Part shown: piece after piece, positions 2,470 through 25,779 of the stretch
How positions within the stretch are numbered: the first letter of the stretch is position 1
How the letters are laid out: each line of letters starts with the position of its first letter
The notes under the pieces: model-generated
What the model saw: the letters and a program-made list of their open reading frames with translations, nothing else
Databases searched by the model: none
Told to the model about the DNA's origin: nothing
NCBI RefSeq assembly: GCF_019464535.1
Contig: NZ_CP080507.1
Location: 600,001-632,000, forward strand
Length of the DNA stretch: 32,000 bases
From: Horticoccus luteus
GTDB taxonomy: Bacteria; Verrucomicrobiota; Verrucomicrobiia; Opitutales; Opitutaceae
Direction of reading: 5' to 3'
Position numbers and translations under genes: made by a program

Positions 2470-2472
2470 GGC

Positions 2473-4334: not shown

Positions 4335-4389
4335 CGGTGGAAAAACGCTACACGGGCGGGGCGGATAAACAATCCGATCTCGCATTGGG

Positions 4390-5889
<1,500 letters not shown>

Positions 5890-10300: not shown

Positions 10301-10476
10301 CGGAATCGCGCCGCCCGCTGGGCCTCGCGGTGGTCGGCGGCCTCATCGTTTCGCAGATGCTGACGCTTTATATTACGCCGGTGATTTACGTGTATATGGA
10401 CAAATTCACCGCGCGCTTGCGGCGGCGGCCGACGCTCCCGCATTTGATGGAGCCGATCGAAGCCGGCGCGAAGTAG
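7345..10476 (+). CDS. RND (AcrB/MdtB-type, HAE1) inner-membrane efflux transporter
   Basis: 1043-aa ORF with a typical RND N-terminus (CIRRPVMTSLLTAAL..G..AY..LPVSDLPNVDFPTIVV), 12-TM topology, two large periplasmic loops, and conserved VGFVVDDAIVMLENI and GIVKKNAIMMIDFA segments. No outer-membrane factor gene follows it. Confidence 0.97.
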   Translation: MNLPALCIRRPVMTSLLTAALCVFGVMAYRLLPVSDLPNVDFPTIVVSASLPGATPETMASAVATPLEQQFSTIAGIDSMTSTSSLGSTSITLQFTLERSIDAAAQDVQASIAAVQRLLPQDMPAPPSFRKTNPADQPVLYLALSSPTLPLSVVDEYAEANLAQRISTVEGVAQVQVFGSQKYALRVQLDPRALASRGITLDEVQTALAAHNVNLPTGVLDGNRQAMTIIATGQLTSVAEFNQIVVAYRNGAPVRLGQLAKVIDSVQENRVASWYYDQNGGNRAVVLSIQRQPGTNTVEVVQRVKALIPAFSEQLPASVKLNVLFDRSTTVRESVDDVQFTLLLSIALVVLVIFIFLRTLTATIIPGVAIPMALLGTFIAMYFFGYTLDNLSLLALTLSVGFVVDDAIVMLENIVRYIEQGMSVREAAFKGAGEIGFTILSMTLSLVAVFIPVLFMGGILGRLLHEFAVTITASILVSGVVSLTLTPMLCSRFLKPHRGHDATRHGKLYQLSERGFEAMVAFYERTLGHAMKHRLLTVCVALAMVVLTVVVARQLPTGFIPTDDTGQIFAFTEAAQDVSFAEMTAHQEAAAAVVAKNPNVEAFMSAIGASKSSSTGNQGRMFMRLKPRNERPPAAEIVQDLRHELSAIPGLKAYPQLLPPIRIGGSLTKALYQFTLFGSDLKELYAAAQKMEVKMRGIAGLQDVNSDLQISNPQLRVNIKRDRAAALGITPQQIEDALYSAFGSRQVSTIYTPTNQYYVIMEMAPDFQKTPEALAQLYLRSRGGKTVPLDTVASLDRSVGPLTVNHLGQVPAVTISFNLRPGVSLGEASSAITELARKELPATISYGFQGSAQAFASSMRGLGLLLLMAVLVIYIVLGILYEDFIHPLTILSGLPAASFGALATLWLFHQELNVMGYVGIILLVGIVKKNAIMMIDFALATRAQGEMSAEVAIKRACVVRFRPIMMTTFAALAGAIPIALGLGAGAESRRPLGLAVVGGLIVSQMLTLYITPVIYVYMDKFTARLRRRPTLPHLMEPIEAGAK

Positions 10477-10510
10477 GGAAGTCCCGCGGGCGGGGATGGT
10501 GGTTTGGCGG

Positions 10511-10528
10511 CTACGTATTCATACGTAG
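10511..10528. repeat. Perfect AT-rich 18-bp palindrome CTACGTAT-TC-ATACGTAG (candidate operator)
   Basis: Read directly from the sequence: 8-bp arms with a 2-nt centre. It lies 35 nt after the RND pump stop and 200 nt upstream of the lipoprotein operon start. Confidence 0.6.
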
Positions 10529-10656
10529 GCAGCACGCGTTTACCTATGAGCCGCGGGTCTAGGCCGACGTGCCCGGCCGCTTGACTTCGATTTTATCAAT
10601 AGGCGTGGTTAATCGCGTCCTATTCAACTTATCGAATCGAGCCATTCGCTGTAGTC

Positions 10657-10686
10657 TCGACTGCTTTAGTGTTCCGGTTATATAAT
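10657..10686 (+). promoter_or_regulatory. Candidate sigma70-type promoter (TCGACT-N18-TATAAT) for the lipoprotein operon
   Basis: A perfect TATAAT lies at 10681-10686 inside the only markedly AT-rich intergenic stretch (about 10590-10700). A near-consensus -35 box lies 18 nt upstream, and the element is about 40 nt from ATG 10728. This rests on pattern match only. Confidence 0.3.
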
Positions 10687-10727: not shown

Positions 10728-11870
10728 ATGTTTCATCTCATTGCACGTGTCTTAACGGTGGGTATTTTGGCCGCCGGGCTACTCGCCGGTCGCGCCTCCG
10801 CGGCGAAGCCTGGTGCCTCCACGGACGACGGCGGCACGCAGGTCCGGGCTGCACTCAAAGCTGCGATCTTCGTGACGAATCGCGCGGGTGCTGCCTATGA
10901 TGACAAGCTCGGCACGCTGGAAGATCTCGTGACCGGAGATGTGACGAACCAAGGGGTGTCGGTCATCAGCCGGGAGACGGCGATCAGCGCCGTCGGCTCG
11001 CTCGATCCCCAGGCGACGGAAAACAAACTCGATCAACTGCTCAACCAAAGCACGTCGGCCGTGCGGCTCGCGCAGACGTTGGGGGCGGACTATATTTTGC
11101 AGGTCACGCTGACGAGCGTGGGCACGAAGAAGAATTCGTTGAACGCCTACGGCGTGAACACGACGAACGAACAGCAGACGGTGCGCGTGGGCTACAAGAT
11201 TCTCGATGGCAGCACCGGAGCGAGTCTCAGCGCGGATACGGTCAAGGCGTCCCGCAGCGTGCAGCAGTCGAAAACGACGAGCGAGGACACCTCGGATGTC
11301 GTCAACGATTTGCTCGAAGAAGCGGCCCGGAAAGTGGCCGTGAGCCTGAAGCAGCGCATCGACCGGGGTGGGATCGCCGCACCGACGGCGGCGGCGACGC
11401 TCGCGACTCTGACGCTCCGCACGGAAGCAGCAGATCTCGTGATCCCGGACGTGCGGATCGGGCCGGACAACACCGTCACGATTTCCGAAAGCAAGTTCAA
11501 GGTGGTGCCACTCGCGGCGAGCGTCGAGGTGGACGGCATCGCGGTCGGCACGGCGCCGGGGGTGTTTCAAATCCGTCCGGGCCTGAGCAAGATTCGCGTG
11601 GTCCGTGAGGGCTTCGCGCCGTGGCAGCGCACCGTGAACGTGGTTAACGATCTCAAGCTCACGGCGACGCTCGTGATGGACGACGCGGGCTATGCGAGGT
11701 GGAAGGAGGCCACGGCGTTCCTGAACGGCTTGAAGAACGACGCGAAGCTCACGGATGCGGAGGTCAAGAGACTCGAGGGCGAGGCGCGGATGCTCGAGCA
11801 GAGTGGATTCAAGGTGGATACGAAGGACGCGCCGCACATCGAAGATCACCGGTCGATTTTCGGTCGCTGA
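10728..11870 (+). CDS. Secreted protein: CsgG/LpoB-like N-terminal domain plus C-terminal PEGA domain
   Basis: Signal peptide MFHLIARVLTVGILAAGLLAGRASAAKP. The N-domain follows the CsgG/LpoB/TolB-N pattern (IFVTNRAG...LEDLVTGDVTNQGVSVISRE...LGADYILQVTLTSVG). The C-terminal VEVDGIAVGTAPGVFQIRPGLSKIRVVREGFAPWQRTVNV matches the PEGA-domain pattern. Confidence 0.7.
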   Translation: MFHLIARVLTVGILAAGLLAGRASAAKPGASTDDGGTQVRAALKAAIFVTNRAGAAYDDKLGTLEDLVTGDVTNQGVSVISRETAISAVGSLDPQATENKLDQLLNQSTSAVRLAQTLGADYILQVTLTSVGTKKNSLNAYGVNTTNEQQTVRVGYKILDGSTGASLSADTVKASRSVQQSKTTSEDTSDVVNDLLEEAARKVAVSLKQRIDRGGIAAPTAAATLATLTLRTEAADLVIPDVRIGPDNTVTISESKFKVVPLAASVEVDGIAVGTAPGVFQIRPGLSKIRVVREGFAPWQRTVNVVNDLKLTATLVMDDAGYARWKEATAFLNGLKNDAKLTDAEVKRLEGEARMLEQSGFKVDTKDAPHIEDHRSIFGR

Positions 11871-11896
11871 ACGGAAACTACCTAACGTTTTTCGCC

Positions 11897-12790
11897 ATGA
11901 AAATCTTTCGTTTCGCCGCTCTGATCGGACTCTCCGCCGTGGTGCTCGCCACTGCGCTGGTGGCGCAGGACGCGCCGCAAAAAAAGAAGCTCGCGATCAC
12001 CAAGATCTCCGCCACGGACGCGCTCCGCACGCGGATGACGAAGCAGGGCGTCGCCCTTTCGCTCGATTCCGTGCTGCAGGCGCTCGAGTCGCAGGTTTAC
12101 GAGCGGATCGTCAACACGCGGCGCTTTGAGGTCCATGAACGTGCCGATGCGGATGCGCTCGCCACGGAGGCCGCGGCGACGGGCGGCACCTTCAGCTTTG
12201 AGGGCGTCGACTATTTGCTGACGATTCGCGTGGATTCGTTCAACGACCGCGTGGAGACGCGCAAGCTGGCCGCGCTGGGCAAGACGCTTCGAGCGCGGGT
12301 GATCGAACTCTCCGCGGTCGCCAAAGTGACCGAGGTGGCGACGCAGCGCGCCGTCGTCACGACGAACTTCCAAGTCACCCAGCGCGATGCGGAGAATCGC
12401 TCCGACAACACCACGGAGCGGGTCGGTGAGGCGAGCGATGGGCTGATGATCGCGGCGACGCGCGAAATGGCGCAAAAAATTGCGAGTCGTGCCGCCGATG
12501 CGATTTATCCGGCGCGCGTGCTCGCGAAACGCGACCGGCTGGTGACGATCAATCGCAACGATCAGTCCGGGGTGAAGGTGGGCCAGGTGTGGGAAGTCTT
12601 CGTGTTGGGCGATGAGCTGGTCGATCCCGACACGGGCGACAAGAGCCGCGAGGAAGTTTTGGTCGGCCAGGTAAAAATCAGCCGCATCACGCCGCAGAAT
12701 TCCCAAGCGGAGATTCTCGAAGACACCGGCATCGATCGCGGCGCCTTGGTGCGCCTGAAGGACGACGTCGCCGACGACACGGAAAGTTAA
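11897..12790 (+). CDS. Secreted CsgG/LpoB-like protein with C-terminal small beta-barrel (SH3/OB-like) domain
   Basis: ORF 11699..12790(+), trimmed to ATG 11897 (MKIFRFAALIGLSAVVLATALVAQDA, signal peptide). The pattern KKKLAITKISA...LESQVYERIVNTRRFEVHERAD...GVDYLLTIRVDSFN is the CsgG-family layout. The tail LVTINRNDQSGVKVGQVWEVFVLG...VGQVKISRITPQNSQAEIL looks like a small beta-barrel. Confidence 0.65.
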   Translation: MKIFRFAALIGLSAVVLATALVAQDAPQKKKLAITKISATDALRTRMTKQGVALSLDSVLQALESQVYERIVNTRRFEVHERADADALATEAAATGGTFSFEGVDYLLTIRVDSFNDRVETRKLAALGKTLRARVIELSAVAKVTEVATQRAVVTTNFQVTQRDAENRSDNTTERVGEASDGLMIAATREMAQKIASRAADAIYPARVLAKRDRLVTINRNDQSGVKVGQVWEVFVLGDELVDPDTGDKSREEVLVGQVKISRITPQNSQAEILEDTGIDRGALVRLKDDVADDTES

Positions 12791-12853
12791 TTTCAGCCGC
12801 GCGGCGTGCTCAAGCGGCCGCGTTCGGCACCCAATCAATCTTCAACTCAACTT

Positions 12854-14440
12854 ATGAAATCGACCATCACCTCTCGCGCGCGACTGCCGCTGATTGCCGG
12901 CGGCCTCGCGGTGCTTTTGTTCACGGCGGGTTGCCAGACCTATCAACAGCAGACCACGCAATTCACCTCCGCCACGCGGTCCGGCAGTCTCGCCACGGCG
13001 ATCACGACGATCAACAAGCAGGCGGATTCCCATCAAGGTTCCAAAGACGAAATCGTGTGGCGGCTGGAACAGGGCCTGAGCCTGCGCACCGGAGCGCTGG
13101 CGGACGCCGGGGAAGTGGCGGGGTTGATGCCTGCGCCCGCCCCGCAGAACGATCCGGCGAGCAAGGATGCCCCGATTCTGCCGCCACCCCCGCCACCCAC
13201 GCCGGACGAAGTGCGGGTTTACTTTCTTGAACAATCGATCGTGGCGTTCGACCAGGCCGAAGCGCGGGTGAACCACTACGAGGAGGAAGCGAAGGTCAAG
13301 GTCGGCAGCGAAGTGGGCGCGGCGTTCACCAACCAGGCCAATCTGCCTTACCGCGGCCGGGCCTATGACAAGGTGATGATGAACGCCTACAAGGCCATGG
13401 ATTACCTGCAACTCGGCAAGAAGGACGACGCGCGCGTCGAGCTCAACCGCTCGCTGCAGCGCCAGCGCGATGCCGTGGCGGACAACGAAAAGCGCATTGC
13501 CGAGGCCCAGAACATCGCCGCGCAGGCGAAGGCCGGGAAGGTGAAGACGGCGGAAGGCAAGAGTGCGGCTTACGATACGAACAAGGCGCTGAACGACGCG
13601 AAGACCGGCCCGGCGTTGCAGGCCGCGCTCAATGAATCACTCGCACCGATGAAGCCTTATGGCGACTACGTGAACCCCTACGCGGTGTTCTGGGACGGAC
13701 TGTTCTTCGTCAACCTCGGCGAAAATGGTTCCGACTGGGAACGCGCGCGCAAATCACTCGAACGCGCCGCGCAAATCGTCCCGGAGAATCCTTATCTCAA
13801 GCAGGACCTCGATCTCGCGACGCACGTCGCCGAGGGCAAGGCGCCGGAGAATCTCACCTACGTCATCTTCGAGACGGGCACCGGTCCCGCCCGTGATCAG
13901 GTGCAGATCAACATTCCCACGTTTCTGATCGGCGGCGGCCCGGCTTACGTCGGAGCCGCGTTTCCGAAGCTGAAATTCAACAACGACTACATCGCTTCGC
14001 TCGCCGTGTCGGGCGGCGACCAAACGTGCTCGACGTCCACCATCGCGAGCATGGACAGCATCGTGGCGAACGACTTCAAAAATGAGTGGCCCAGCGTGCT
14101 CACGAAGACGCTCGTGACCACGGCGACCAAGGCGATCACGCAAGCGGTCGTGGAGAAAACGGCCAACAACCGGGGCGGCATGTGGGGCGGCCTCGCAGCG
14201 AAAGTGCTGATGAGCGCAATCAACGCTTCGACCAACGTCGCCGATACGCGCACGTGGACGAGCCTGCCGAAGGAGTTCCAATATGCACGAATCACCACGC
14301 CCGCGGACCGCAAACTTGCCCTCAACGCCGGGGGTGTCGCGCACACCGTCGATCTCGTGCCGGGCTCCGTGAACATCGTCTACGTCAAGAGCACGTCGAC
14401 GACCGCTCCGCTCCTCGTCTCCCAATTCGCCCTCCGATGA
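12854..14440 (+). CDS. Large lipoprotein, TPR-like N-region, COG3014-like (tentative); module part A1
   Basis: ORF 12806..14440(+), trimmed to ATG 12854 (MKSTITSRARLPLIAGGLAVLLFTAGC, lipobox). It is visibly paralogous to 17693..18886. Shared motifs: Y-x-x-R-A-Y-[DE]-[KR]-x-M...Y...G...[DN]AR, [IV]FE-x-G-x-GP, and ADTRTWTSLP versus ADIRTWDNLP. The family name comes from memory only. Confidence 0.65.
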   Translation: MKSTITSRARLPLIAGGLAVLLFTAGCQTYQQQTTQFTSATRSGSLATAITTINKQADSHQGSKDEIVWRLEQGLSLRTGALADAGEVAGLMPAPAPQNDPASKDAPILPPPPPPTPDEVRVYFLEQSIVAFDQAEARVNHYEEEAKVKVGSEVGAAFTNQANLPYRGRAYDKVMMNAYKAMDYLQLGKKDDARVELNRSLQRQRDAVADNEKRIAEAQNIAAQAKAGKVKTAEGKSAAYDTNKALNDAKTGPALQAALNESLAPMKPYGDYVNPYAVFWDGLFFVNLGENGSDWERARKSLERAAQIVPENPYLKQDLDLATHVAEGKAPENLTYVIFETGTGPARDQVQINIPTFLIGGGPAYVGAAFPKLKFNNDYIASLAVSGGDQTCSTSTIASMDSIVANDFKNEWPSVLTKTLVTTATKAITQAVVEKTANNRGGMWGGLAAKVLMSAINASTNVADTRTWTSLPKEFQYARITTPADRKLALNAGGVAHTVDLVPGSVNIVYVKSTSTTAPLLVSQFALR

Positions 14441-14874
14441 AGAATTTCTCCCTCCGCATTCCGGTGGTTTCGCGCGGTCGCGCACTGCTGGCCGTCGCCG
14501 TGGGGCTGCTCGCCGGCTGTGCGACCAACGTTAACACTGTGGAGCGCGCCCAACCGCAGGCTGCTCCCACCTACATCGCCGACAAGCGCGTCGTCACCGA
14601 CAACACACTTGCCGGCATGGTGCGGGTTGTCGCGATCAACCAGTCGACCGTGTCGGGCAACCTGCTGAAGGTGCAAGCGACCATCGAGAATAGAAAGAAC
14701 TCGCTGCGCACGCTGAACTACAAGTTCGAGTGGATCGACCGCGATGGCATGGCCATCAACTCGCCCAACGAAACTTGGAAATCCGTCCAACTCCAAGGCC
14801 GCGAGACGACGACCATTGCCACCGTCGCCATCAATCCGCGCGCCGTCGATTTCGTCCTCAAACTTCGCGAATAA
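14437..14874 (+). CDS. YcfL/DUF1425-like small lipoprotein; module part B1
   Basis: ORF 14086..14874(+), trimmed to ATG 14437, which overlaps the A1 stop as ATGA. Lipoprotein signal MKNFSLRIPVVSRGRALLAVAVGLLAGC. The core LLKVQATIENRKNSLRTLNYKFEWIDRDGMAI...TTTIATVA...AVDFVLKLR matches the E. coli YcfL pattern (..VHYRFYWYDARGLE..). Confidence 0.7.
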   Translation: MKNFSLRIPVVSRGRALLAVAVGLLAGCATNVNTVERAQPQAAPTYIADKRVVTDNTLAGMVRVVAINQSTVSGNLLKVQATIENRKNSLRTLNYKFEWIDRDGMAINSPNETWKSVQLQGRETTTIATVAINPRAVDFVLKLRE

Positions 14875-14886
14875 CCGTCTCTCTTT

Positions 14887-15492
14887 ATGAATCCTCCACA
14901 TTTCTTCCGTCCGCTGCTCGGGGCTTGCTCCGCGTCGGTCCTCTTCTTCGCCGGCTGCGCCACAGCGCCAGAGACGCGCACCATCGATTCGAAGGGGCCC
15001 GAAGCGCTTAACACCGCGAGCATCAACTCGCAGGACTGGGCCAGCGCCGCCGACCAGCTCGTGCAATCGTTGCTCACGTCCAACGCCCTCGACCGCGTCC
15101 GCACGCAACCGGCCGTGCTCGCCGTCGACCGCATCATCAATAACACCACGCTCTCAGTGGACACGGACTTGCTCATCAAGAAAATCCGCGTGGCGTTGAC
15201 GCAGACCGGCAAGGTCGCGGTGACGAATACCATGGGCCTGGGCGAACGTGCCGTGGTGGCTTCCGAAGCGGCCGAAATGGAAGAAATGACGACCGGCAAG
15301 AAACAAAAACTAAAGGCGCCAGACTTCACGCTATACGGGAAACTCATCCAGCAGACCGACCGCGCGAAGAGCGTCACCCAAAACACCTACACGTTTCAAA
15401 TGTCGCTGGTGGACGTGAAGAGCGGGCTCACGGTGTGGGAAGAGGAGCGCGAAATCGCGAAGCAGACGAAGCGGTCCAGCGTCGGCTGGTAA
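14887..15492 (+). CDS. LpoB/COG3417-like lipoprotein (penicillin-binding-protein-activator family); module part C1
   Basis: Lipobox SVLFFAGC. It shows the LpoB-like layout: SQDWASAADQLVQSLL, PAVLAVDRIINNTTLSVDTDLLIKKIRVALTQTGKV, PDFTLYGKLIQQ, YTFQMSLVDVKSGLTVWEEEREIAKQ. It starts 12 nt after B1. Confidence 0.75.
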   Translation: MNPPHFFRPLLGACSASVLFFAGCATAPETRTIDSKGPEALNTASINSQDWASAADQLVQSLLTSNALDRVRTQPAVLAVDRIINNTTLSVDTDLLIKKIRVALTQTGKVAVTNTMGLGERAVVASEAAEMEEMTTGKKQKLKAPDFTLYGKLIQQTDRAKSVTQNTYTFQMSLVDVKSGLTVWEEEREIAKQTKRSSVGW

Positions 15493-15567
15493 CGCGACGC
15501 CTACGCGGATCGCCCTGTCCGCCAAGCGCGTGAGATTATCAAGGGAGGCGTGAGCGAAAGGAGTATC

Positions 15568-15598
15568 AACCCCGGCCGTGGTGCCGGGGTTTTTCTTT
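15568..15598 (+). terminator. Rho-independent terminator ending the first lipoprotein operon
   Basis: AACCCCGGC-cgtggt-GCCGGGGTT forms a 9-bp stem with a 6-nt loop. It runs into TTTTTCTTT and lies 76 nt after the C1 stop, between convergent genes. Confidence 0.8.
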
Positions 15599-15699
15599 GG
15601 CTGAATGACGCGACGACAAGGTGCCGGCGTGTGCGGCAGGCACGGGCGCGAGCGCCGGCGATGGGCCGATGCCGGGAGTGGCGCGGTGCCTGGGCGCCG

Positions 15700-16041
15700 T
15701 CACTTCGTGAGCGGTCGCCCCTGTTCGTCGACTTCCGTTTCCACGGGCACTTGGATAGTGCGCCCGTCGGAGGTGGTCTCGGTGCGCCAGGTGCGCACAA
15801 TCCGGTGCTCGTTGGCAAACGGGGATTTTGCCGCGGCGCTCGCTCCCTCAGCAGCGCCCACCGCCGCTCCTGCGACGGTGCCGGCCACGGCGCCAACGAC
15901 GGTTCCAGCGGCTTCGCCAAGCGCGGGGCCGGGATGGTTGGGGTTGGTGATCCGGCTTTCCGCGGAGCGGGTGGCGCACCCGGAAAGCAAGGCGATCCCG
16001 AACGAAAAGGCAGCGGCGAGTGCGGTGGACCGAGTGGTCAT
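15700..16041 (-). CDS. Small glycine-zipper lipoprotein (SlyB / 17-kDa-antigen-like)
   Basis: ORF 15700..16083(-), trimmed to the ATG at 16039-16041 (MTTRSTALAAAFSFGIALLSGC, lipobox). It carries the GxxxG ladder GTVVGAVAGTVAGAAVGAAEG. Third codon positions are G/C-rich in this frame. The overlapping + strand ORF 15605..16240 has no export signal and is Arg-rich. Confidence 0.7.
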   Translation of the reverse strand: MTTRSTALAAAFSFGIALLSGCATRSAESRITNPNHPGPALGEAAGTVVGAVAGTVAGAAVGAAEGASAAAKSPFANEHRIVRTWRTETTSDGRTIQVPVETEVDEQGRPLTK

Positions 16042-16167
16042 GGAAGTGACTGGTGAGCATGGGCCTGCCGCGGATTTCGACAAGCGTGAAGCGTGGATTC
16101 TGCCGGAAGGGTGGGGGGAAATCTCCGTCCGCTGGTGGAGTTTGTGCTCTGGGCTGCTATTTTCCCC

Positions 16168-16196
16168 GCCAACTCGCGTTCCGAGCGCGAGTTGGC
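16168..16196. repeat. Perfect 11-bp inverted repeat GCCAACTCGCG-N7-CGCGAGTTGGC (candidate operator or 5' UTR hairpin)
   Basis: Read directly from the sequence. It sits in the divergent intergenic region between the two glycine-zipper genes, 73 nt upstream of ATG 16269. Confidence 0.6.
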
Positions 16197-16268
16197 ATCC
16201 TCACTGGACCACGCCTTGTTTGGTGAAACCTCATGAGTAACATCCTGTCTCCGAAACTTCCCAACCGC

Positions 16269-16880
16269 ATGAAAACGCTTCTCACCCTCAGCCTTGCCCT
16301 TGGCTTGTTCGCCTCGGCGGACGCGCAAGCGTTTCGGCCGCATTGGGGGCATGCGGGACACGGGGGAGCGCATTATCACGGCGGGGCGTTTCATCACGGC
16401 TCGCATCGTGGCTGGGCGCGGCCGTCTTTCTCCTTTTACTACTCCGACCACGGTTGGAATCCGGCGCCGTTATATTCGTATCGTTATGCCAGTGCGCCGG
16501 TTTACGTCTCGTCGGACTACGTGTCGCCCGCACCCAGCCGGGCGGCGTCGGGGTTGTTTTGGGGCGGGTTGCTGGGGGCAATTGTAGGCAACAACAGCGG
16601 CAGCCTCGGCCACAATGCGTGGCGCGGAGCCGCCTACGGCGCGGGTGCGGGTTTGCTGCTCGGCGCGCTGAGCGACCATGCGGCTTCCGAACGCGAGGCG
16701 GCGGCGGCCCGCACGGTATCTTACGTGCCCACGCCCTCCAGCCCGGCGCCGGCCATCGCTGCCGCGAACGTCGAAGACTCCGCTGCCGTCCGTGATCAGA
16801 CGCCCGACCCGGCGCCCCGCGTGCGGCGGCGTCCGGCGTCCGCGATGAGTTCGGCGAATTCCCTGTTCGGCCGCAACTGA
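16269..16880 (+). CDS. Secreted His/Gly-rich glycine-zipper protein
   Basis: ORF 16233..16880(+), with the start taken at ATG 16269 (MKTLLTLSLALGLFASADAQA, signal peptide). The mature N-terminus FRPHWGHAGHGGAHYHGGAFHHGSHRGW has 8 His. A glycine-zipper core follows (GLFWGGLLGAIVGNNSGSLGHNAWRGAAYGAGAGLLLGAL), then a Pro/Ala-rich tail. Confidence 0.7.
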   Translation: MKTLLTLSLALGLFASADAQAFRPHWGHAGHGGAHYHGGAFHHGSHRGWARPSFSFYYSDHGWNPAPLYSYRYASAPVYVSSDYVSPAPSRAASGLFWGGLLGAIVGNNSGSLGHNAWRGAAYGAGAGLLLGALSDHAASEREAAAARTVSYVPTPSSPAPAIAAANVEDSAAVRDQTPDPAPRVRRRPASAMSSANSLFGRN

Positions 16881-16905
16881 CGCAGCCCTGGGCCAACTTT
16901 TTCCC

Positions 16906-17541
16906 ATGATGAACCTCACCACTCGAATCGTGCCCCTTTCCTGCTTGGCGGCGCTGGCGGCGTTTTCCGCCGGCTGCACGTCGTCCGGCGTCAAAAATCC
17001 TTCCGGCGTGCCCGTGACCGAGATGAAAGCCGATGAACGCGGCTTCGTCGCCGGCACCGGCGTCGAGTCGCAGGATCTCGTGGCCGTCACCGACAAGATG
17101 GCGCGCAGCATTCTCGCGATTCCGGAAATCGCGCAGGCCAAAACGCCGCCGCGCATCGCCCTCGATCCGGTGATCAACGAGACGCGTTTCCCGATCAACA
17201 AGGACATCTTCAACGATCGCATCCGCATCCAGCTCAACACCAAGGCGGCGGGCAAAGTGCGGTTTCTCGCGCGCGATCGCATGAAGACCCTCGAGCACGA
17301 ACGTGAGCTCAAGCAATCCGGCCAGGTCACGGCGAGCTCCGATCCGAACGTCGTCGAGTTTCGCGGCGCGGATTACTTCCTGACCGGCAAACTCGCCGGC
17401 ATGTCCACGCGCACCTCCGCCGGCACCAGCGACTACGTCTTGTATAGTTTCCAACTGATCGACGCGCGGACGAGCGAAGTGGTGTGGGAAGATGCGTCGG
17501 AGATCAAAAAGCAGGGTCTGGAAGACGCCGCCTATCGGTGA
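16906..17541 (+). CDS. LpoB/COG3417-like lipoprotein, second paralog; module part C2
   Basis: Lipobox AAFSAGC. It aligns by eye with C1: SQDLVAVTDKMARSIL, PRIALDPVINETRFPINKDIFNDRIRIQLNTKAAGKV, ADYFLTGKLAG, YVLYSFQLIDARTSEVVWEDASEIKKQG. It starts 25 nt after the preceding gene. Confidence 0.75.
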   Translation: MMNLTTRIVPLSCLAALAAFSAGCTSSGVKNPSGVPVTEMKADERGFVAGTGVESQDLVAVTDKMARSILAIPEIAQAKTPPRIALDPVINETRFPINKDIFNDRIRIQLNTKAAGKVRFLARDRMKTLEHERELKQSGQVTASSDPNVVEFRGADYFLTGKLAGMSTRTSAGTSDYVLYSFQLIDARTSEVVWEDASEIKKQGLEDAAYR

Positions 17542-17692
17542 GCCCTGCGGCGCGGCTTCGTCGGCGCGGCTCTTCCTCGATCAACGAAGGGCCGGGCGCG
17601 ATGAGTCGCCCGGGTGAATTTATCGTCGGAAGAGCAGGCGAGCCTCGTCGCGGGGCTCGCCGTTCTGTCTGACCCAAAACGTTTCCTCTGCT

Positions 17693-18886
17693 GTGCAACT
17701 GCGTTTCCCGAGTTTTCTTTCCGGCTCCCTGCTGGCGGCGGCCATCCTGCTTGCGGGCTGTGCCACCACGCCGCAAGCGCCGCGCTTCGCGCTCACGGGC
17801 GATCCCGTGATCGATGGCAACAACGAGCAGGCCGCCGGTCCCAAGCAGGATCGCGTGCTGTGGGATTACCGCATCGCGGCGTCCGCGATGCGCCTGGGGC
17901 GCTTCGATGAGGCCAAGGCCAAACTCGACGACGCCATTCTCACAATGGGCGGCATCATCGCCGATTCCGCCGACGCCAAGCGCGCGCGCAGTCTCTTCGC
18001 CGCGGAGAGCGCGAAGACGTTCATCGGCGAACCGTATGAACGGGCGATGGCGTATTATTATCGCGGCATCCTCTATTGGCGCGACGGCGAGCCGGACAAC
18101 GCGCGCGCCTGTTTTCGCTCGGCGGAGTTTATCGACAGCGATGCCGACAACGCCGAATACAAGGGCGACTACGTGCTCTGCGATTACCTCGATGGCTACG
18201 TGACGGCCCGCCTCGGCGGCGATGGTTCCGATGCGCGCCAGCGGGCCGAGCGCAACCGCCATCGGCCGATGCCGCCCTACGATCTCAAGGCCAATGTGCT
18301 CTGCTTCGTCGAATACGGTCGCGGTCCGCGCAAATACGGTGGCGGCGAATACGGCGAGCAGTTGCGTTTTCAAGTCACCGATTCGCCGGCGCATTACGCG
18401 CGCCTCACGGTCGAAGGTCGCACCTACGAACTGCCGCCTTACGATGATCTCAATTTCCAAGCGACGACCCGCGGCGGCCGCGTGATGGACTACATTCTCG
18501 GGCACAAGGCCGTCTTCAAGCAGGGCGCGGACACGGTCGGCAACGTCGGCCTGCTCGGCGCGGCCGCGGCGTCCTCGGGCATTTATCGGCGCGACGGTTC
18601 GAAGAATCACGACGCCGAAAACGCCACCGTCGCCCTCGCGGCGATCGGCCTGATCAGCAAGCTGGCCGCGGCGGCGACGACGCCGCACGCCGACATCCGC
18701 ACGTGGGACAACCTGCCGCAGCGCCTGAGCTTTGCGGCGTTGCGCCTCGCGCCGGGCGAACATCGCGGCGTGCTGGAATTTCTCGACGAACGGCACCATG
18801 TTCTGGGTGATCGCTCCCGGGAAATCGTGCTGCAAGTCAACGCCGAGGGTGACACCGTCGTGTTTCTCAGCGAACTAAAATCCTGA
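17693..18886 (+). CDS. Large lipoprotein, COG3014-like (tentative), paralog of 12854..14440; module part A2
   Basis: GTG start at 17693 gives a lipoprotein signal (QLRFPSFLSGSLLAAAILLAGC). It shares these segments with A1: GEPYERAMAYYYRGILYWRDGEPDNARACFRSA, VLCFVEYGRGPRK, and ADIRTWDNLPQRLSFAAL. Confidence 0.65.
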   Translation: MQLRFPSFLSGSLLAAAILLAGCATTPQAPRFALTGDPVIDGNNEQAAGPKQDRVLWDYRIAASAMRLGRFDEAKAKLDDAILTMGGIIADSADAKRARSLFAAESAKTFIGEPYERAMAYYYRGILYWRDGEPDNARACFRSAEFIDSDADNAEYKGDYVLCDYLDGYVTARLGGDGSDARQRAERNRHRPMPPYDLKANVLCFVEYGRGPRKYGGGEYGEQLRFQVTDSPAHYARLTVEGRTYELPPYDDLNFQATTRGGRVMDYILGHKAVFKQGADTVGNVGLLGAAAASSGIYRRDGSKNHDAENATVALAAIGLISKLAAAATTPHADIRTWDNLPQRLSFAALRLAPGEHRGVLEFLDERHHVLGDRSREIVLQVNAEGDTVVFLSELKS

Positions 18887-18912
18887 CCGCAAGTCTCACC
18901 GCTTCTGACGCC

Positions 18913-19332
18913 ATGAACACCAAGCCAATCCTCGTCCTCGCTCTCGCCGCCACCCTGGCCTTTCTCACCGGTTGTGCCTCCGAGCCCGGCCCGTATGCGC
19001 CGCAGGACACCACGAAATTCACCGTCGAGAACACCGATAAATTCGTGCTCCTCGACAAAGCCACGCAAACCTCCGTGACCTGCACAGGCTTGCAGGAGCG
19101 CACGCTCTCCGACGGCCGCTTCGAAGTGGTGGCCAACATCAAGAACCGCGAAGCGCGCCGCATTCAGGTGCAGGTCAATTGTGTGTTTAAGGACGAACAA
19201 GGTTTCTCGACGGGCGACGAAACGCCGTTTCAGACCTTGATCCTCGCGGAAAACGCGACGGAAGCCGTGCGTTTCACCTCGGCGAATGCCAACGCGCACA
19301 AATACACGATCCGCGTTCGCCAGGCGCGCTGA
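18913..19332 (+). CDS. YcfL/DUF1425-like small lipoprotein, second paralog; module part B2
   Basis: Lipobox LAFLTGC. The core GRFEVVANIKNREARRIQVQVNCVFKDEQGF...ATEAVRFTSANANAHKYTIRVR has the same layout as B1 and YcfL. It starts 26 nt after A2. Confidence 0.6.
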   Translation: MNTKPILVLALAATLAFLTGCASEPGPYAPQDTTKFTVENTDKFVLLDKATQTSVTCTGLQERTLSDGRFEVVANIKNREARRIQVQVNCVFKDEQGFSTGDETPFQTLILAENATEAVRFTSANANAHKYTIRVRQAR

Positions 19333-19557
19333 GGGAAAGCAGGGAAACGGCGCGGCGCGCGCGCTCCGCATTGACGAAAACCTGACGGCTTCCACTGCGG
19401 CGATCGGGCTCACGCGCATCCCTTCGGGATGCGCAAGGCGTGAGCGTATCGCGCGCACGGGCGCGCCACCGCCTCCGCGCAAAGGCGGCCCGCAAAAATG
19501 CGGCGCGAGTGGCGAAATTTCCGGTCAAATCCACGTTAACTCACATCCCCTTGTCCT

Positions 19558-20553
19558 ATGAAAATCCGTGCTTTTCTCTCCGCCGCGTTCGCCTCCGCTC
19601 TCTTCACCAGCGCCTGGGCTCAGAGCTCCACGCGCGCGCCGGAGCCGCCGGTGCCGGTCGTGACTGCGCCCAGCCAAGGGGCGGTCGTGGCCCCGCCAAC
19701 GGAAAACCAGCGCTTGTATGGAGCCGATGCAGCGCCGCTCGTTTCGCGCGAAGCGGCGGATAACGTGGTGCGGAAATTCCGCGCCACCTACGCGACCGGC
19801 CAAGCGCCGCGCGTGGTGATTTATGTGAACCGCCAGCTCGTCGATTTCGACAGCGGGCTGAAGCTCACGAAGCACACGGAGTATTACGATCGCACCGAGA
19901 CGAAGACCAGTAGCGGGATATCCTCCACCGTGACGCCGCCCGCGCCTGCCGCGGGCGCATCGACGACAGGCGCAGACGCCGCGACGAACGCTCCGGCCAA
20001 CGCCGGCTCCGTCACCGCGCCGGTGCCGCCGCCGGCGTCGACCAACGGCACGTCGAGCGCCACGACGCGCACGAGCGGGCAGAACACTTACACGATGGAG
20101 AACAAAACCCCCGCGACCCTGGCGGACCGCCAGACCGTGCGCGATGTGGAGCGCCTCTTCGGCCGGGTCTTTCGCAATGCGGGCGCGCGCCTGGCGGATC
20201 AAAAGGTGGCGACCGACGTGCTGGGCAATGAACCAGGTCAACGGCTCGTCGGCACGCAGGCGGCGCAGGAACGCGCAGCGTTGAGCAAGGTGGCGGACAT
20301 CGCGGTGGAAGTGCTCATTTCGAGCCGCAACCTCACCGTGCCGGGCATCACGGGCGCGCAAGTTTACACCGTGCCGGACATCCAGGCGACGGCGATCCGG
20401 CTCTCGGATGCGGCGATCGTGGGGCAGGCGAGCGCGAGCGATATTTTGGGCCGCGATCAGGAAGCGGCGCGGCTGGTGCGCCAGTTCGACGTCAACGACA
20501 TCACGGAAGCCGTCGCGCTCGCGTTGCTCGAAGACATGACGACGGGCCAGTGA
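19558..20553 (+). CDS. Secreted two-domain protein with S/T/P/A-rich linker; C-terminal domain CsgG/LpoB-like (tentative)
   Basis: Signal peptide MKIRAFLSAAFASALFTSAWAQS. A central low-complexity linker is present (TSSGISSTVTPPAPAAGASTTGADAATNAPANAGSVTAPVPPPASTNGTSS). The C-domain VERLFGRVFRNAGARLADQK...VADIAVEVLISSRN...ATAIRLSDAAIVGQA follows the same pattern as the 10728 and 11897 gene products. Confidence 0.6.
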   Translation: MKIRAFLSAAFASALFTSAWAQSSTRAPEPPVPVVTAPSQGAVVAPPTENQRLYGADAAPLVSREAADNVVRKFRATYATGQAPRVVIYVNRQLVDFDSGLKLTKHTEYYDRTETKTSSGISSTVTPPAPAAGASTTGADAATNAPANAGSVTAPVPPPASTNGTSSATTRTSGQNTYTMENKTPATLADRQTVRDVERLFGRVFRNAGARLADQKVATDVLGNEPGQRLVGTQAAQERAALSKVADIAVEVLISSRNLTVPGITGAQVYTVPDIQATAIRLSDAAIVGQASASDILGRDQEAARLVRQFDVNDITEAVALALLEDMTTGQ

Positions 20554-22864: not shown

Positions 22865-23383
22865 ATGGACACTATTTCTCGGGAAAATAACAGCATGCTC
22901 CCCGTCGGCGGCATTATCGTCGGGGTCATTGCCTTGTTGCTGAGCGGCTACGCCGCCATCAGCCTGGCCAAGGTGAATCGCACCTTGGCTGCACATGAGG
23001 AGAAGGTGGCCCGCATCGATACCCTCGAGTCGCAAGTCAACTCCTCCTCGGCGGCGAGCGAGAAGGCGTCCCGCGACATCGCGGCGCTCACGCGTTCGAC
23101 GCAGGATGCGTTTAACCAAGTCGGCGGCGACTTGGGCAACATCCACGCTTCGCTCACGAAGCTGGAAGAATCCGCCAAGGCGGCGCCGGTGAAAGCCGCG
23201 AAGGGTGGCAGCAGCGGTCCCGTGGTCGCGGGCGAAGGCGAATACGTGATCAAGAGCGGCGACTCGTTTGCGAAGATCGCGCGGTCCCACGGCACCTCGA
23301 TCGCGGACATCCAGGCGGTGAACCCGGGCGTCGATTCCTCGAAGCTGCACGTCGGCCAGAAGATCAAACTGCCGAAGAAGTAA
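22865..23383 (+). CDS. Membrane-anchored coiled-coil protein with C-terminal LysM domain
   Basis: One N-terminal TM helix (LPVGGIIVGVIALLLSGYAAISLA) is followed by a coiled-coil-like segment and a terminal LysM (YVIKSGDSFAKIARSHGTSIADIQAVNPGVDSSKLHVGQKIKLP). An alternative start lies at ATG 22895. Confidence 0.85.
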   Translation: MDTISRENNSMLPVGGIIVGVIALLLSGYAAISLAKVNRTLAAHEEKVARIDTLESQVNSSSAASEKASRDIAALTRSTQDAFNQVGGDLGNIHASLTKLEESAKAAPVKAAKGGSSGPVVAGEGEYVIKSGDSFAKIARSHGTSIADIQAVNPGVDSSKLHVGQKIKLPKK

Positions 23384-23414
23384 TTTCTGCGGTCCACACG
23401 CTGGATCGTAAACG

Positions 23415-23447
23415 AAAACCTCCCGCCAAAACGCGGGAGGTTTTTTT
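23415..23447 (+). terminator. Rho-independent terminator after the LysM gene
   Basis: AAAACCTCCCGC-caaaac-GCGGGAGGTTTT is followed by a T7 run and lies 32 nt after the stop codon. Confidence 0.85.
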
Positions 23448-23714
23448 GTGGTTTCACGGCGGCGGGCAGGCGGATTTTTGGGTCACAGAGTGCAGCGAGT
23501 CCGGAACCGAGTCCACGGAGCCGGACGAGGCGAAGATCGGAGTCGAAACCCTCGCGCAGGGCGGATGGGTCCGCTGCGCACGCGAACCGTGGCAAGGGCG
23601 AAGGCGGTGGCTCGTACAAGCCGCGCGCGGCTGGCGCGGTGAGGCGCGGGGGCGAATCGCGGGAGGGAAAATACGCGTTGGAAAGCGGGACACGTTAACC
23701 TACACGGTGGGCGC

Positions 23715-24299
23715 ATGGCGACGAACGAACCGACGGATCCGGCGAAGATCGCGCGTTGGGAAAAGCTCGGGCACGCGTTGCTCGCATCGACGCGGGTCTT
23801 TGAACTGCGCAGCACGCGCTACCGGCATCCGGTGCGGCTGACGGAGCGGGACTTCATCGTGGCGCATCCGCCGGATTGGGTGAACGTGCTGGCGCTGACG
23901 CCGGACCATCATCTGGTGTTGGTGCGGCAGTTTCGTTTCGGCACGGAGGCGTTTTCGTGGGAAATCCCGGGCGGAGTGATGCACGTGGGCGAGGACCCGC
24001 TGGTCGGCGGGCCGCGTGAGTTGCGGGAGGAAACGGGGTTCATCGGCGCACCGGCGCGCCTGCTGGGAAGCGTGCATCCGAATCCGGCGATCCAGAGCAA
24101 CCGGTGTCACTTCGTGCTGGTGGAACAAGCCGCGCAGACGGCGGCGTTGGAGTGGGACGCGGACGAGGAGATCGAGGTGACGACGCTGCCGGTGGAGGAG
24201 GTGCTGGCGCGCGTGCATGCGGGCGAGATCACGCACGGCCTCGTGCTCAACGCGTTGCTTTTTTTTCAGAAGTATTGGGAAACGATGCGGCCGCGGTGA
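23715..24299 (+). CDS. NUDIX hydrolase (ADP-ribose pyrophosphatase-like)
   Basis: The Nudix box GGVMHVGEDPLVGGPRELREETGF fits Gx5Ex7REUxEExGU. The overall layout is NudF-like (VLALTPDHHLVLVRQFR, EIPGG). Confidence 0.9.
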   Translation: MATNEPTDPAKIARWEKLGHALLASTRVFELRSTRYRHPVRLTERDFIVAHPPDWVNVLALTPDHHLVLVRQFRFGTEAFSWEIPGGVMHVGEDPLVGGPRELREETGFIGAPARLLGSVHPNPAIQSNRCHFVLVEQAAQTAALEWDADEEIEVTTLPVEEVLARVHAGEITHGLVLNALLFFQKYWETMRPR

Positions 24300-24493
24300 G
24301 GGTGGCGGGCGCGAGGGGAAGGGCATTCGTTCAGCGTGGCGGCGGCGAGAGGCTGGCGGGAAATTGGCGCGCGGCATGAAGAAGCGCGGCGGCGGAGAAA
24401 ACGAAACGCGGACGCGTGCCGCCACGTAGGGGAGACCGGGCGCAACGTTTGACTTGCCAGTTGAGGCACGCATACCTTGCGCCCCGTTTACCC

Positions 24494-25747: not shown

Positions 25748-25779
25748 GCGGGGTTTAGCGAGTGAGGGTGCGTGAGGGC

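Follow-up and report, generated by a model that had tools for sequence, protein, structure and literature searches.

In E. coli, LpoB activates PBP1B, which it reaches through a linker of roughly 58 residues (PMC6220978). At the E. coli locus ycfL and lpoB alone are adjacent, as a first reading of the present DNA (hereafter the sequence-only reading) had stated. In a K. pneumoniae Tn-seq experiment, cells become more sensitive to cefiderocol when ycfL, lpoB, mrcB or nagZ carries insertions, but the MIC is unchanged in a clean ycfL deletion (PMC13436387); hence a polar effect on lpoB may account for the ycfL signal. The HP0018 mutant of H. pylori has chained outer-membrane vesicles and loses its helical shape, and AmiA and MltD co-precipitate with HP0018 (PMC11394524). 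Finally, Campylobacter jejuni possesses a three-gene lipoprotein operon, cj0089-cj0091, also correctly named in that reading; for Cj0091 the reported phenotype is one of adhesion, and Cj0089 was recovered in the inner-membrane fraction (PMC3100323).

We analysed a window of 32,000 nucleotides from Horticoccus luteus (Opitutaceae, Verrucomicrobiota), in which a 10-kb block had been proposed to encode an undescribed system. Its core does have published relatives (the C. jejuni operon, H. pylori HP0018 and E. coli LpoB), although no function has been assigned to the trio as a whole, and we found no name for these cassettes in the literature. The block consists of two independent, separately conserved operons, called here modules A and B, each arranged around one trio. 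Its members are a TPR lipoprotein whose C-terminal domain is conserved (G3 in module A, G9 in module B), a YcfL/DUF1425 protein of Ig-like type (G4, G10) and an LpoB-fold protein (G5, G8).

The features of the block are collected in Table 1. The coordinates given in the sequence-only reading were right but not its count of ten genes, nine on the + strand and one on the - strand: there are eleven, ten of them on the + strand. The parts list of that reading (2+2+2+3+2) sums to 11 too. As it had claimed, every product carries an export signal (in 11/11 a basic n-region is followed by a hydrophobic core) and seven have a lipobox: LLFTAGC in G3, LLAGC in G4, FFAGC in G5, LLSGC in G6, FSAGC in G8, LLAGC in G9 and FLTGC in G10, those of G3 (T at -3) and G8 (S at -3) satisfying the looser PROSITE-type rule only. 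Outside the signal peptides, the 11 proteins have no strongly hydrophobic segment, and G9 and G6 have borderline ones. We reproduced the ATGA overlap (14437-14440) as well as the gaps of 26, 63, 12, 25 and 26 nt; two wider gaps can be added, one of 151 nt (G8-G9) and one of 225 nt (G10-G11). RefSeq labels most of these parts hypothetical. Domain and profile searches detected no enzyme or NTPase among the products of the block, again as claimed, and since they revealed no ATPase, inner-membrane component or beta-barrel protein encoded in the block, the modules are not self-contained transporters.

Table 1. Genes and predicted signals of the block (positions in the window)
Feature	Positions	Strand	Description	Module
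Sigma-70-like promoter candidate, upstream of G1	10657..10686	+	TCGACT, 18-nt spacer, TATAAT	
G1	10728-11870	+	380 aa	module A
G2	11897-12790	+	297 aa	module A
G3	12854-14440	+	528 aa, lipoprotein	module A
G4	14437-14874	+	145 aa, lipoprotein	module A
G5	14887-15492	+	201 aa, lipoprotein	module A
Intrinsic terminator ending module A	15568..15600	+	9-bp GC-rich stem and U-tract	
G6	15700-16041	-	113 aa, lipoprotein	convergent with module A
G7	16269-16880	+	203 aa; alternative start 16233	module B
G8	16909-17541	+	210 aa, lipoprotein	module B
Very stable stem-loop without U-tract, G8-G9 gap	17630..17672	+	-35.5 kcal/mol, z = -5.7	
G9	17693-18886	+	397 aa, lipoprotein	module B
G10	18913-19332	+	139 aa, lipoprotein	module B
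G11	19558-20553	+	331 aa	module B

The strong intrinsic terminator announced after the fifth gene was found again (15568-15591 with the tail UUUUUCUUU, -22 kcal/mol); it is predicted to act on the + strand only, the - strand having no U-tract. The promoter before G1 is a candidate by its consensus match alone, 10 of the 12 positions agreeing. As for the stem-loop between G8 and G9, none of 200 shuffles (0/200) reached an equal folding stability.

The trio is indeed present two times, as G3-G4-G5 and as G8-G9-G10. The sequence-only reading spoke of a doubled and much-expanded version; the doubling holds but not a recent expansion. Identity is 25% between G5 and G8 and 22% between G4 and G10, and G3 and G9 are related at the profile level only (hhalign probability 93.8%, E 1.7e-7). 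These low values mark an ancient paralogy.

Module A comprises G1 to G5 and the convergent G6, the order of its trio being COG3014-type TPR lipoprotein, YcfL/DUF1425, LpoB. Ahead of the trio stand two accessory genes of Opitutaceae type, paralogues of each other, G1 being invariably the first gene and G2 the next in the module A loci compared. G1 is a secreted non-lipoprotein with an N-terminal alpha/beta domain, a PEGA domain (1.7e-6, present in 9/9 orthologues tested) and a helical C-terminus ending in RSIFGR; it has weak FlgT_M and GNA1162 matches besides. In some related Opitutaceae, a trypsin-like protease domain is inserted in the G1 orthologues. G2, also secreted, has an N-terminal domain related to that of G1 (probability 89.7%, E 1.8e-6; 15% only when the alignments are shallow), a small barrel-like C-terminal domain and an acidic tail. 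It has no Pfam match, and an Azospirillum protein with a C-terminal domain of this type comes near the Pfam LpoB threshold (21.7 bits vs a cut-off of 22.3). The orthologues of G1 and G2 give weak FlgT_M, LptE and CsgG matches. G3, which ends with the motif ADTRTWxxLP, is 100% identical to H. luteus K0B96_02465, and NCBI names its orthologues "COG3014 family protein". G4 is an Ig-like lipoprotein (Pfam DUF1425, 1.9e-24, 85.8 bits; PDB matches 3o0l and 4gio, the latter being Cj0090), and E. coli YcfL is nearer to it than to G10. G5 is an LpoB-family lipoprotein with a short linker (Pfam LpoB, 3.3e-27), its PDB matches being LpoB chains only. G6 has a conserved C-terminal region, a weak glycine zipper and an N-terminal part resembling PA1041/YiaD; in 23 of the 25 metagenomic loci with room for it, as well as in the loci L001 and L002, it comes after module A and is encoded on the other strand.

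Module A is the canonical type of the trio: its parts score higher than those of module B in comparisons with E. coli YcfL, with E. coli LpoB and with the curated models. Its gene order matches that of C. jejuni cj0089-91 and is also seen in Aeromonas, at the hinT locus, and on a plasmid of Azospirillum. There the profile of G3 finds the TPR genes (3.7e-26 for the Aeromonas gene, located between hinT and ycfL, and 2e-50 for the plasmid gene), and the PGAP names of the genes that accompany them are "YcfL family protein" and "penicillin-binding protein activator LpoB". E. coli ycfL-lpoB is a reduced form of the trio. The E. coli and Aeromonas loci adjoin nagZ or hinT.

Module B, G7 to G11, combines an LpoB/CsgG-like protein, a TPR protein, a DUF1425 protein, a fourth protein of LpoB/PelC fold and a glycine-zipper protein. 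The last of these, G7, is secreted, with a His-rich N-terminus, a Gly-zipper_YMGG match barely over the cut-off (5.9e-7) and a tail ending in SLFGRN. G8 is a divergent LpoB/CsgG-HfaB-like lipoprotein (Pfam LpoB 4.4e-20; CsgG 8.5e-4, under the cut-off). G9, identical to K0B96_02495, has an N-terminal TPR part, to which its PDB matches are confined, and a C-terminal beta domain that includes a hydrophobic hairpin of helices, and it bears the motif ADIRTWDNLP (AF2 model: pLDDT 84, pTM 0.78); its family has 1602 cluster representatives at E<=1e-3, most of them carrying a motif of this type. G10 is a divergent DUF1425 lipoprotein (1.8e-9, 37.8 bits vs a Pfam cut-off of 28.3). G11 is a secreted protein without any Pfam match, the homologues found being all annotated "hypothetical"; in its AF2 model, an LpoB/PelC/CsgG-like alpha/beta core (pLDDT ~90) is interrupted by a disordered insert of about 90 aa, rich in T, A, S and P (residues 96-185). 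The best Foldseek matches are LpoB 4q6l, PelC 9h80/5t0z/5t10, CsgG 4uv2 and GNA1162 4hrv, and no significant match to LpoB was obtained by sequence profile. The families named in the sequence-only reading thus stand for G3-G5 and G7-G10, the glycine zipper of G6 being weak, while the "CsgG/LpoB-like" domains attributed to G1, G2 and G11 reduce to a likeness of fold in G11 and to sub-threshold sequence matches in G1 and G2.

The trio is found in many bacterial phyla, and the module B cassette in Verrucomicrobiota, Alpha-, Beta- and Gammaproteobacteria and Desulfobacterota. In 74/78 module B loci the TPR gene has an LpoB-like gene upstream, and in 68/78 it has a DUF1425 gene downstream; 32 of the 73 loci with room for it contain a G11-like gene, and in Verrucomicrobiota, Alphaproteobacteria and Desulfobacterota the cassette is accompanied by a flanking G7-like gene. 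A Sphingomonas plasmid carries the same four genes (LpoB-like, TPR, DUF1425 and G11-like). Unlike the seven lipoproteins of the block, the proteins of this cassette have no lipoboxes, which means that outer-membrane anchoring is not universal. Profile searches and synteny uphold the view that these are poorly understood envelope families in co-oriented, conserved operons; because synteny is conserved, a chance grouping is excluded.

We think, tentatively, that the most likely function is an action on peptidoglycan enzymes: each of the two operons may encode an outer-membrane-anchored periplasmic complex acting on peptidoglycan synthases or hydrolases. We propose this because there are precedents, LpoB acting on PBP1B and HP0018 apparently on AmiA and MltD; in the Opitutae genome L006, module B lies near PBP2-mreDCB. 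The Tn-seq result in K. pneumoniae and the nagZ or hinT neighbours of the E. coli and Aeromonas loci also speak for a link to peptidoglycan. Several observations count against this reading. The linkers of G5 (from the lipidated Cys to the domain) and G8 have about 26 and 33 residues, vs roughly 58 in E. coli LpoB, and both proteins are below the equivalog cut-off of NCBIfam TIGR02722 for LpoB (110.55 bits), slightly for G5 (106.7) and more for G8 (65). Further points against it are the likeness in fold of G11 to the secretion components PelC and CsgG, the unchanged MIC of the clean ycfL deletion, the findings on Cj0091 and Cj0089 in C. jejuni, and the missing lipoboxes of the Sphingomonas cassette.

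The modules could instead have a structural role, tethering or stabilising the outer membrane; their loss would then lead to vesiculation and leakiness, with no direct control of enzymes. The hypervesiculation of the HP0018 mutant (PMC11394524) is consistent with this, as are the placement of cassettes among core housekeeping genes, the resemblance of the G6 N-terminus to that of peptidoglycan-anchoring lipoproteins of PA1041/YiaD type, and the glycine zippers of G6 and G7 together with the borderline-hydrophobic hairpin of G9, which suggest membrane contact. However, none of the 11 proteins has an OmpA-like, LysM or other peptidoglycan-binding domain, and LpoB, the sole biochemically defined member of these families, is an enzyme activator (PMC6220978), so that we consider a tether unlikely.

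It seems to us quite improbable that the modules are accessories of outer-membrane polymer or amyloid export, in which rings of LpoB/PelC/CsgG fold would lie under a pore with the TPR protein as a PelB-like scaffold. The G11 model is as close to the subunits of the PelC dodecamer, CsgG and GNA1162 as to LpoB, but all these fold matches are marginal (E ~1e-2). The sub-threshold CsgG match of G8, whose Sphingomonas counterpart PGAP names "CsgG/HfaB family protein", and the weak matches of the G1 and G2 orthologues point in the same direction, yet the LpoB-like domains, with about 150 residues, are too short for the CsgG transmembrane hairpins. The Sphingomonas cassette adjoins a nucleotide-sugar dehydrogenase and a diguanylate cyclase/phosphodiesterase; in Verrucomicrobiota, however, housekeeping genes (kdsB, pyrG and his genes, for example) surround the cassettes, and no porin, secretin, glycosyltransferase, polymerase or substrate gene is conserved beside the cassettes.

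The view of the sequence-only reading, in which the ten (or eleven) genes would make up a single integrated machine of many lipoproteins, is very improbable. It is true that the genes are contiguous and 10/11 co-oriented, that modules A and B adjoin in L004, L005, L094, L111, L123 and L126, and that the full 11-gene arrangement is seen again in several Opitutaceae contigs (L004, L005, L111, L123 and L126). But the two halves are parted by the strong terminator and a convergent gene, and each module is found alone elsewhere. Oleiharenicola, Rariglobus and most of the metagenomic relatives have module A but not module B (L001 to L003 and at least 11 metagenomic loci with at least 2.7 kb of sequence past G6), and module B is by itself in L006 and in each of the 80 genome loci from other classes and phyla. 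The modules are side by side in some Opitutaceae only. As to surface-exposed adhesins, proposed for Cj0091 after its mutant proved less adherent to INT 407 cells and weaker in early chick colonisation, the idea is scarcely credible here, as surface exposure was not demonstrated in that study (PMC3100323), conservation of the cassettes extends to free-living bacteria from soil, freshwater and the sea, and no adhesin-type repeats or domains were detected.

If a role in peptidoglycan metabolism is retained, the proteins of each module would assemble in the periplasm, anchored in the outer membrane, with the TPR protein as the scaffold and the LpoB-fold and Ig-like proteins as the working surfaces. 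More speculatively, the TPR grooves might be docking sites for the S-L/I-F-G-x tails conserved at the C-termini of G1 and G7 and for the acidic tail of G2. At the interface between outer membrane and peptidoglycan, such complexes would regulate or position peptidoglycan synthases or hydrolases, and modules A and B may serve different enzyme partners or different sites.

The block of envelope-protein genes had been read as ten genes; the ORF listing and the inspection of start codons gave eleven, called here G1 to G11, of which G3, G9 and G11 match Horticoccus luteus K0B96_02465, K0B96_02495 and K0B96_02505 at 100% identity. G1 to G5 and G7 to G11 lie on the + strand and G6 lies on the - strand. 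All 11 products start with a basic n-region followed by a hydrophobic core, which agrees with the export signals proposed for them; the seven lipobox strings quoted by the sequence-only reading were each found in the block, and G1, G2, G7 and G11 have AxA-type signal peptides without Cys. Beyond the signal peptides none of the 11 proteins has a strongly hydrophobic segment, borderline ones being seen only in G9 (311-329) and G6. As had been said, the block contains no gene for an enzyme, an NTPase, a regulator or a membrane transporter. The ATGA overlap, the terminator and the gaps of 26, 63, 12, 25 and 26 nt are also as described, and two gaps which had been missed must be added, of 151 nt between G8 and G9 and of 225 nt between G10 and G11. 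A search of the intergenic gaps in Rfam returned no match. The G8-G9 gap measures only ~35 nt in related loci, and its stem-loop could serve in processing or stabilisation, or act as an attenuator.

Features of the window and of the comparison loci (positions are those of the sequence named in the second column)
Feature	Sequence	Positions	Strand	Remark
RND efflux pair	window	5981-10476		membrane-fusion protein and AcrB-type pump; directly upstream of block; unrelated flank
Envelope-protein block, G1-G11	window	10728-20553	+ except G6	
G1 C-terminal tail	window	11853-11870	+	
ATGA overlap	window	14437-14440	+	
Terminator	window	15568-15591	+	with U-tract; acts on this strand only
G7 His/Gly-rich part	window	16330-16420	+	residues 22-50
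G7 C-terminal tail	window	16860-16880	+	
Stem-loop	window	17630-17672		in G8-G9 gap; -35.5 kcal/mol, z = -5.7; no U-tract
PEP-CTERM/PATR protein and tRNA-Pro	window			downstream of block; unrelated flank
GC skew of flanks	window	1-9000, 23000-32000	+	0.12 to 0.28, strongly positive
GC skew of lipoprotein block	window	11000-20000	+	~0 or slightly negative, despite mostly + genes
GC content minimum	window	21-23 kb		falls to 55%, near PEP-CTERM gene and tRNA-Pro
RND genes	L001 (module A alone)	1-1476		
Trypsin-type long G1	L004 (both modules)	2484-4496		
Trypsin-type long G1	L005 (both modules)	2479-4485		
MarR, fusion protein and pump	L006 (module B alone)	3690-8470		directly precede module B, same strand
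ycfJ	L007 (E. coli K-12)	7600-8139		glycine-zipper protein (PF05433); ~4 kb downstream of ycfL-lpoB
Secreted trypsin/HtrA-like protease	L041 (labelled Kapaibacterium)	9400-10533		after LpoB-TPR-DUF1425 trio
Module B cassette, four genes	L133 (Sphingomonas plasmid)	4071-7449		

The block had also been taken for one integrated system. We abandoned this view, as the block is made of two modules which occur separately. G1 to G5 with the convergent G6 (module A) are found without G7 to G11 (module B) in Oleiharenicola lentus and Rariglobus hedericola, and module B is found without module A in one Opitutae genome (L006), right after a MarR-RND operon and near PBP2-mreDCB, while all 11 genes stand in the same arrangement in some metagenomic Opitutaceae. 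In the 45 loci given by a metagenome scan seeded with G2, the order G1, G2, TPR gene, DUF1425 gene, LpoB gene is constant wherever the contig permits, down to 34% G2 identity, and G6 comes next after module A in 23 of the 25 metagenomic loci which have room for it. Module B adjoins module A in only 4 of the G2-seeded loci; at least 11 of them extend at least 2.7 kb past G6 and have no module B. We concluded that a known, functionally unexplained type of lipoprotein operon is present in the window in two variants: module A is a variant extended by Opitutaceae-type accessory genes, and module B is part of a widespread, undescribed five-component form. In four loci (L095, L098, L099 and L105) an extra DUF1425-like ORF lies past the G6 orthologue, the rest of module B being absent.

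Each module contains a trio, made of a TPR lipoprotein, a YcfL/DUF1425 protein and an LpoB-type protein (G3, G4 and G5 in module A, G9, G10 and G8 in module B), and the two copies announced for each family were confirmed. G4 and G10 both pass the cut-off of Pfam DUF1425 (PF07233, 28.3 bits), with 85.8 and 37.8 bits respectively; the best two PDB matches of the DUF1425 profile are 3o0l (5.6e-6) and 4gio (1.2e-3), the latter being the structure of C. jejuni Cj0090 (PMC7857515). G5 and G8 likewise exceed the gathering cut-off of Pfam LpoB (PF13036, 22.3 bits), with 95.6 and 72.5 bits respectively, and the only PDB entries found by the LpoB-type profile are LpoB chains (E 0.003). Both proteins miss the LpoB equivalog cut-off of NCBIfam TIGR02722 (106.7 bits for G5 and 65.4 for G8, against 110.55), and G8 stays under the Pfam CsgG cut-off (PF03783, 19.1 bits against 20.8). 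Neither has the long periplasm-spanning linker of the LpoB type, though both have a lipobox: from the Cys to the domain there are ~26 residues in G5 and ~33 in G8, against roughly 58 in E. coli LpoB, where the linker is proline-rich and the partner is the UB2H domain of PBP1B. G3 and G9 both have a lipobox and TPR matches, and the orthologues of G3 are called 'COG3014 family protein' by NCBI. The two families are homologous at the profile level (probability 93.8%, E 1.7e-7), with a GEPYER..YYYRG TPR stretch and a conserved ADxRxWxxLP motif common to both, and in the model of G9 a beta domain comes after the TPR domain. With the synteny, these features make G3 and G9 TPR lipoproteins of the COG3014 type; sequence and profile searches of the PDB found no relatives of them. 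The paralogues are 25% (G5 and G8) and 22% (G4 and G10) identical, and the pairs are old.

As for the other components, G1 scores 28.3 bits against Pfam PEGA (PF08308, cut-off 20.8), a domain present in 9/9 of its orthologues, and Pfam has no match for G2 and G11. Two glycine-zipper proteins had been proposed: G7 is just over the Pfam cut-offs (PF13441 and PF13488; 29.5 against 28.9 bits and 26.4 against 25 bits), whereas G6, with 13 bits, is below and belongs to this type only weakly. Three proteins had been described as CsgG/LpoB-like. For these (G1, G2 and G11) we found no Pfam CsgG match, or one weak match among orthologues, and the comparison of their sequence profiles with the LpoB profile gave nothing significant. 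For G11 the description is supported at the level of the fold but not of the sequence. Its AlphaFold2 model has a confident core (pLDDT ~90), split by a ~90-residue T/A/S/P-rich disordered insert, and its best PDB matches, which are marginal (E ~1e-2) but form a consistent list, are the LpoB C-terminal domain, PelC, CsgG and GNA1162; with PelC chains, E is 1e-2 to 1e-1 and the TM-score ~0.4 on the target. The LpoB-like fold of G11 is thus read from the structure match, since the sequence profiles are null. G1 and G2 found no relatives in sequence and profile searches of the PDB. Their N-terminal domains are related (probability 89.7%, E 1.8e-6, with alignments of 36 and 41 sequences; only 15% with 5-sequence alignments), their orthologues have scattered sub-threshold matches to FlgT_M, LptE, LpoB and CsgG, and an Azospirillum protein with a G2-type C-terminal domain is almost at the Pfam LpoB cut-off. 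The fold assignment is therefore plausible, but weakly supported for G1 and G2. Local hhalign with -norealign gave a probability of ~99% for every pair, even for G11 against DUF1425, over few columns, and was discarded as an artefact.

The first protein of each module (G1, G7) carries a conserved C-terminal tail. Among G1 orthologues it reads [R/H/N/K]-S-[I/L]-F-[G/N/D]-[F/W/L/R] (34 distinct tails) and among those of G7 in Verrucomicrobiota A-N-[S/A]-L-F-G-R, the conservation being seen in the orthologues of comparison loci L001-L006, L030-L082 and L088-L132; every G2 orthologue ends in an acidic tail. The tails of G1, G7 and G2 may be peptides which dock into TPR domains. The N-terminal part of mature G7 is His/Gly-rich (HWGHAGHGGAHYHGGAFHHGSH), and a second glycine-zipper copy replaces it in other G7 orthologues (L005 and L048 were compared). 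In some Opitutaceae the G1 orthologues reach 670-850 aa and have a Trypsin_2 domain (GGASGSP) between the N-terminal and PEGA domains. Besides the two trypsin-type genes of the table, long G1 ORFs occur in L097, L111, L114, L116, L123 and L126; the inserts of L097 and L114 had no trypsin match in the Pfam scan and may differ. G1 of Horticoccus is without this trypsin-like serine protease domain, which is echoed by the protease gene of L041.

The G9-orthologue profile matched 1602 cluster representatives at E<=1e-3, of which 556 remained at the stricter limit of E<=1e-30. A one-genome-per-species scan with a single conserved peptide pattern gave 466 relatives; 80 loci were kept and annotated with iterated profiles of the window proteins and of their orthologues. 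They come from several Verrucomicrobiota classes, Alpha-, Beta- and Gammaproteobacteria, Desulfobacterota and Methylomirabilia. The LpoB-like gene is directly upstream of the TPR gene in 74/78 loci, the DUF1425 gene is downstream of it in 68/78, a G11-like gene is present in 32/73, and a G7-like glycine-zipper gene is next to many cassettes. In Betaproteobacteria the order is LpoB, DUF1425, G11, TPR. G11 is an accessory component, since it is missing from one Verrucomicrobiota clade, where kdsB occupies its position. Beyond the cassette the neighbours are only lineage-specific housekeeping genes, none of them common across phyla. The survey shows that in Verrucomicrobiota, several Proteobacteria classes and Desulfobacterota, LpoB-family genes are almost always accompanied by genes for a YcfL-type protein and for a large TPR protein, and in many cases by two more. 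The cassette on the plasmid NZ_CP117027 of Sphingomonas hankookensis is annotated as a 'CsgG/HfaB family protein' and three hypothetical proteins. Its products carry signal peptides without a lipobox Cys, and it adjoins genes for a nucleotide-sugar dehydrogenase and a diguanylate cyclase/phosphodiesterase. An apparent G9-G11 fusion (P0259) is not a real one: its sequence reads through a frameshift and contains an internal signal peptide.

One of the closest published relatives is the cj0089-cj0090-cj0091 operon of C. jejuni, which had been named as related, and rightly so: it encodes three co-transcribed lipoproteins of 453, 122 and 207 aa (PMC3100323). G3-G4-G5 are of similar sizes and follow the same order: first the TPR lipoprotein, next the Ig-like DUF1425 protein, last the LpoB-like one. 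In the window, G3 and G4 overlap by 4 nt and G4 and G5 lie 12 nt apart; in module B the order is permuted to LpoB, TPR, DUF1425. The C. jejuni operon, however, contains the trio only once and lacks counterparts of G1, G2, G6, G7 and G11. It is regulated by CmeR, the regulator of the RND pump CmeABC (PMC3100323), and in the window an RND pump sits immediately upstream.

In E. coli, ycfL and lpoB are indeed adjacent (hinT-ycfL-lpoB-thiK-nagZ), and they belong to the same Pfam families and stand in the same order as G4-G5. Against the curated models, as well as against E. coli YcfL and LpoB, G4 and G5 outscore G10 and G8, and module A is the canonical YcfL-LpoB type. Aeromonas caviae has a G3-type TPR gene between hinT and ycfL-lpoB, which bridges the arrangements of E. 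coli and of module A. An Azospirillum plasmid has a TPR gene, a 'YcfL family protein' and a 'penicillin-binding protein activator LpoB', then a DUF6844 protein and a G2-like protein. Since the order is the same in Aeromonas, Azospirillum and C. jejuni, the E. coli pair looks like the reduced form, or remnant, of an older, larger set, the TPR gene having been lost. The E. coli gene ycfJ is matched by the G7 profile at 1.8e-8; it may be what is left there of the cassette's glycine-zipper part, unless this is coincidence.

No catalytic activity is evident in the sequence, so we took the mechanism from the relatives. Each module would give rise to a complex in the periplasm which positions or regulates peptidoglycan enzymes and which, in Horticoccus, is anchored to the outer membrane. 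We regard this as the best reading, at slightly less than an even chance, on the basis of work on three organisms. First, E. coli LpoB is an outer-membrane lipoprotein which activates PBP1B via the UB2H domain, thanks to a long disordered linker (~145 Å), and the TPR protein CpoB modulates this action (PMC6220978). Second, the H. pylori homologue of Cj0089, HP0018, is a TPR lipoprotein whose loss leads to chains of outer-membrane vesicles and to less helical cells; it co-precipitates with AmiA and MltD, and enterohepatic Helicobacter species have it in synteny with an LpoB homologue (PMC11394524). In H. pylori itself the genes are scattered, the LpoB homologue being HP1457. From the COG3014 naming and the synteny we infer that HP0018 is homologous to G3 and G9, for which its phenotype would be the best functional lead. 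Third, in K. pneumoniae, insertions in ycfL cause cefiderocol sensitivity, as do those in lpoB, mrcB and nagZ, but a clean ycfL deletion leaves the MIC unchanged (PMC13436387). As the clean deletion had no such consequence, the insertions were probably polar on lpoB and we did not retain this signal as an effect of YcfL. The missed equivalog cut-off, the linkers of ~26 to 33 residues and the adhesion phenotype reported for Cj0091 (PMC3100323) speak against G5 and G8 simply being LpoB.

It is unlikely that the modules are a purely structural tether. That they are a PelC/CsgG-like secretion accessory is quite unlikely: the core of G11 resembles PelC and CsgG in structure, at the fold level only and with marginal scores, and PelB/PelC, like the cassettes, pairs a TPR protein with a lipoprotein of this fold, but the porin domain, the polymer-synthesis genes and the transmembrane hairpins of these systems are absent from the block. 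A preprint counts a COG3014 protein among its predictors of which Vibrio phages and hosts pair; we dismissed this as too thin a basis for a role in defence.

LpoB is a textbook regulator of cell-wall synthesis, usually seen as an enterobacterial speciality. Going further than the action on peptidoglycan enzymes which we favour, one could imagine, although we find it rather doubtful, that the cassettes are an unrecognised cross-phylum machine of the periplasm, associated with the outer membrane (TPR scaffold, Ig-like subunit, two LpoB/PelC-fold subunits which maybe form a ring, glycine-zipper membrane element). In that case the machine would originally have served some purpose other than PBP1B activation; E. 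coli LpoB would have arisen late, by reduction, and the acquisition of a long linker would have brought it to PBP1B. Literature and full-text searches on the component families found no paper which describes the cassettes as a unit, only the C. jejuni and H. pylori studies: the trio operon type was already known from this work, and the five-component form of module B is previously undescribed. Through the co-occurrence of the trio, YcfL and LpoB gain concrete candidate partners; Aeromonas, in which a TPR gene still separates hinT from ycfL, is a tractable bridge organism, and a widespread group of envelope proteins, still annotated as hypothetical in genomes, is now identified.
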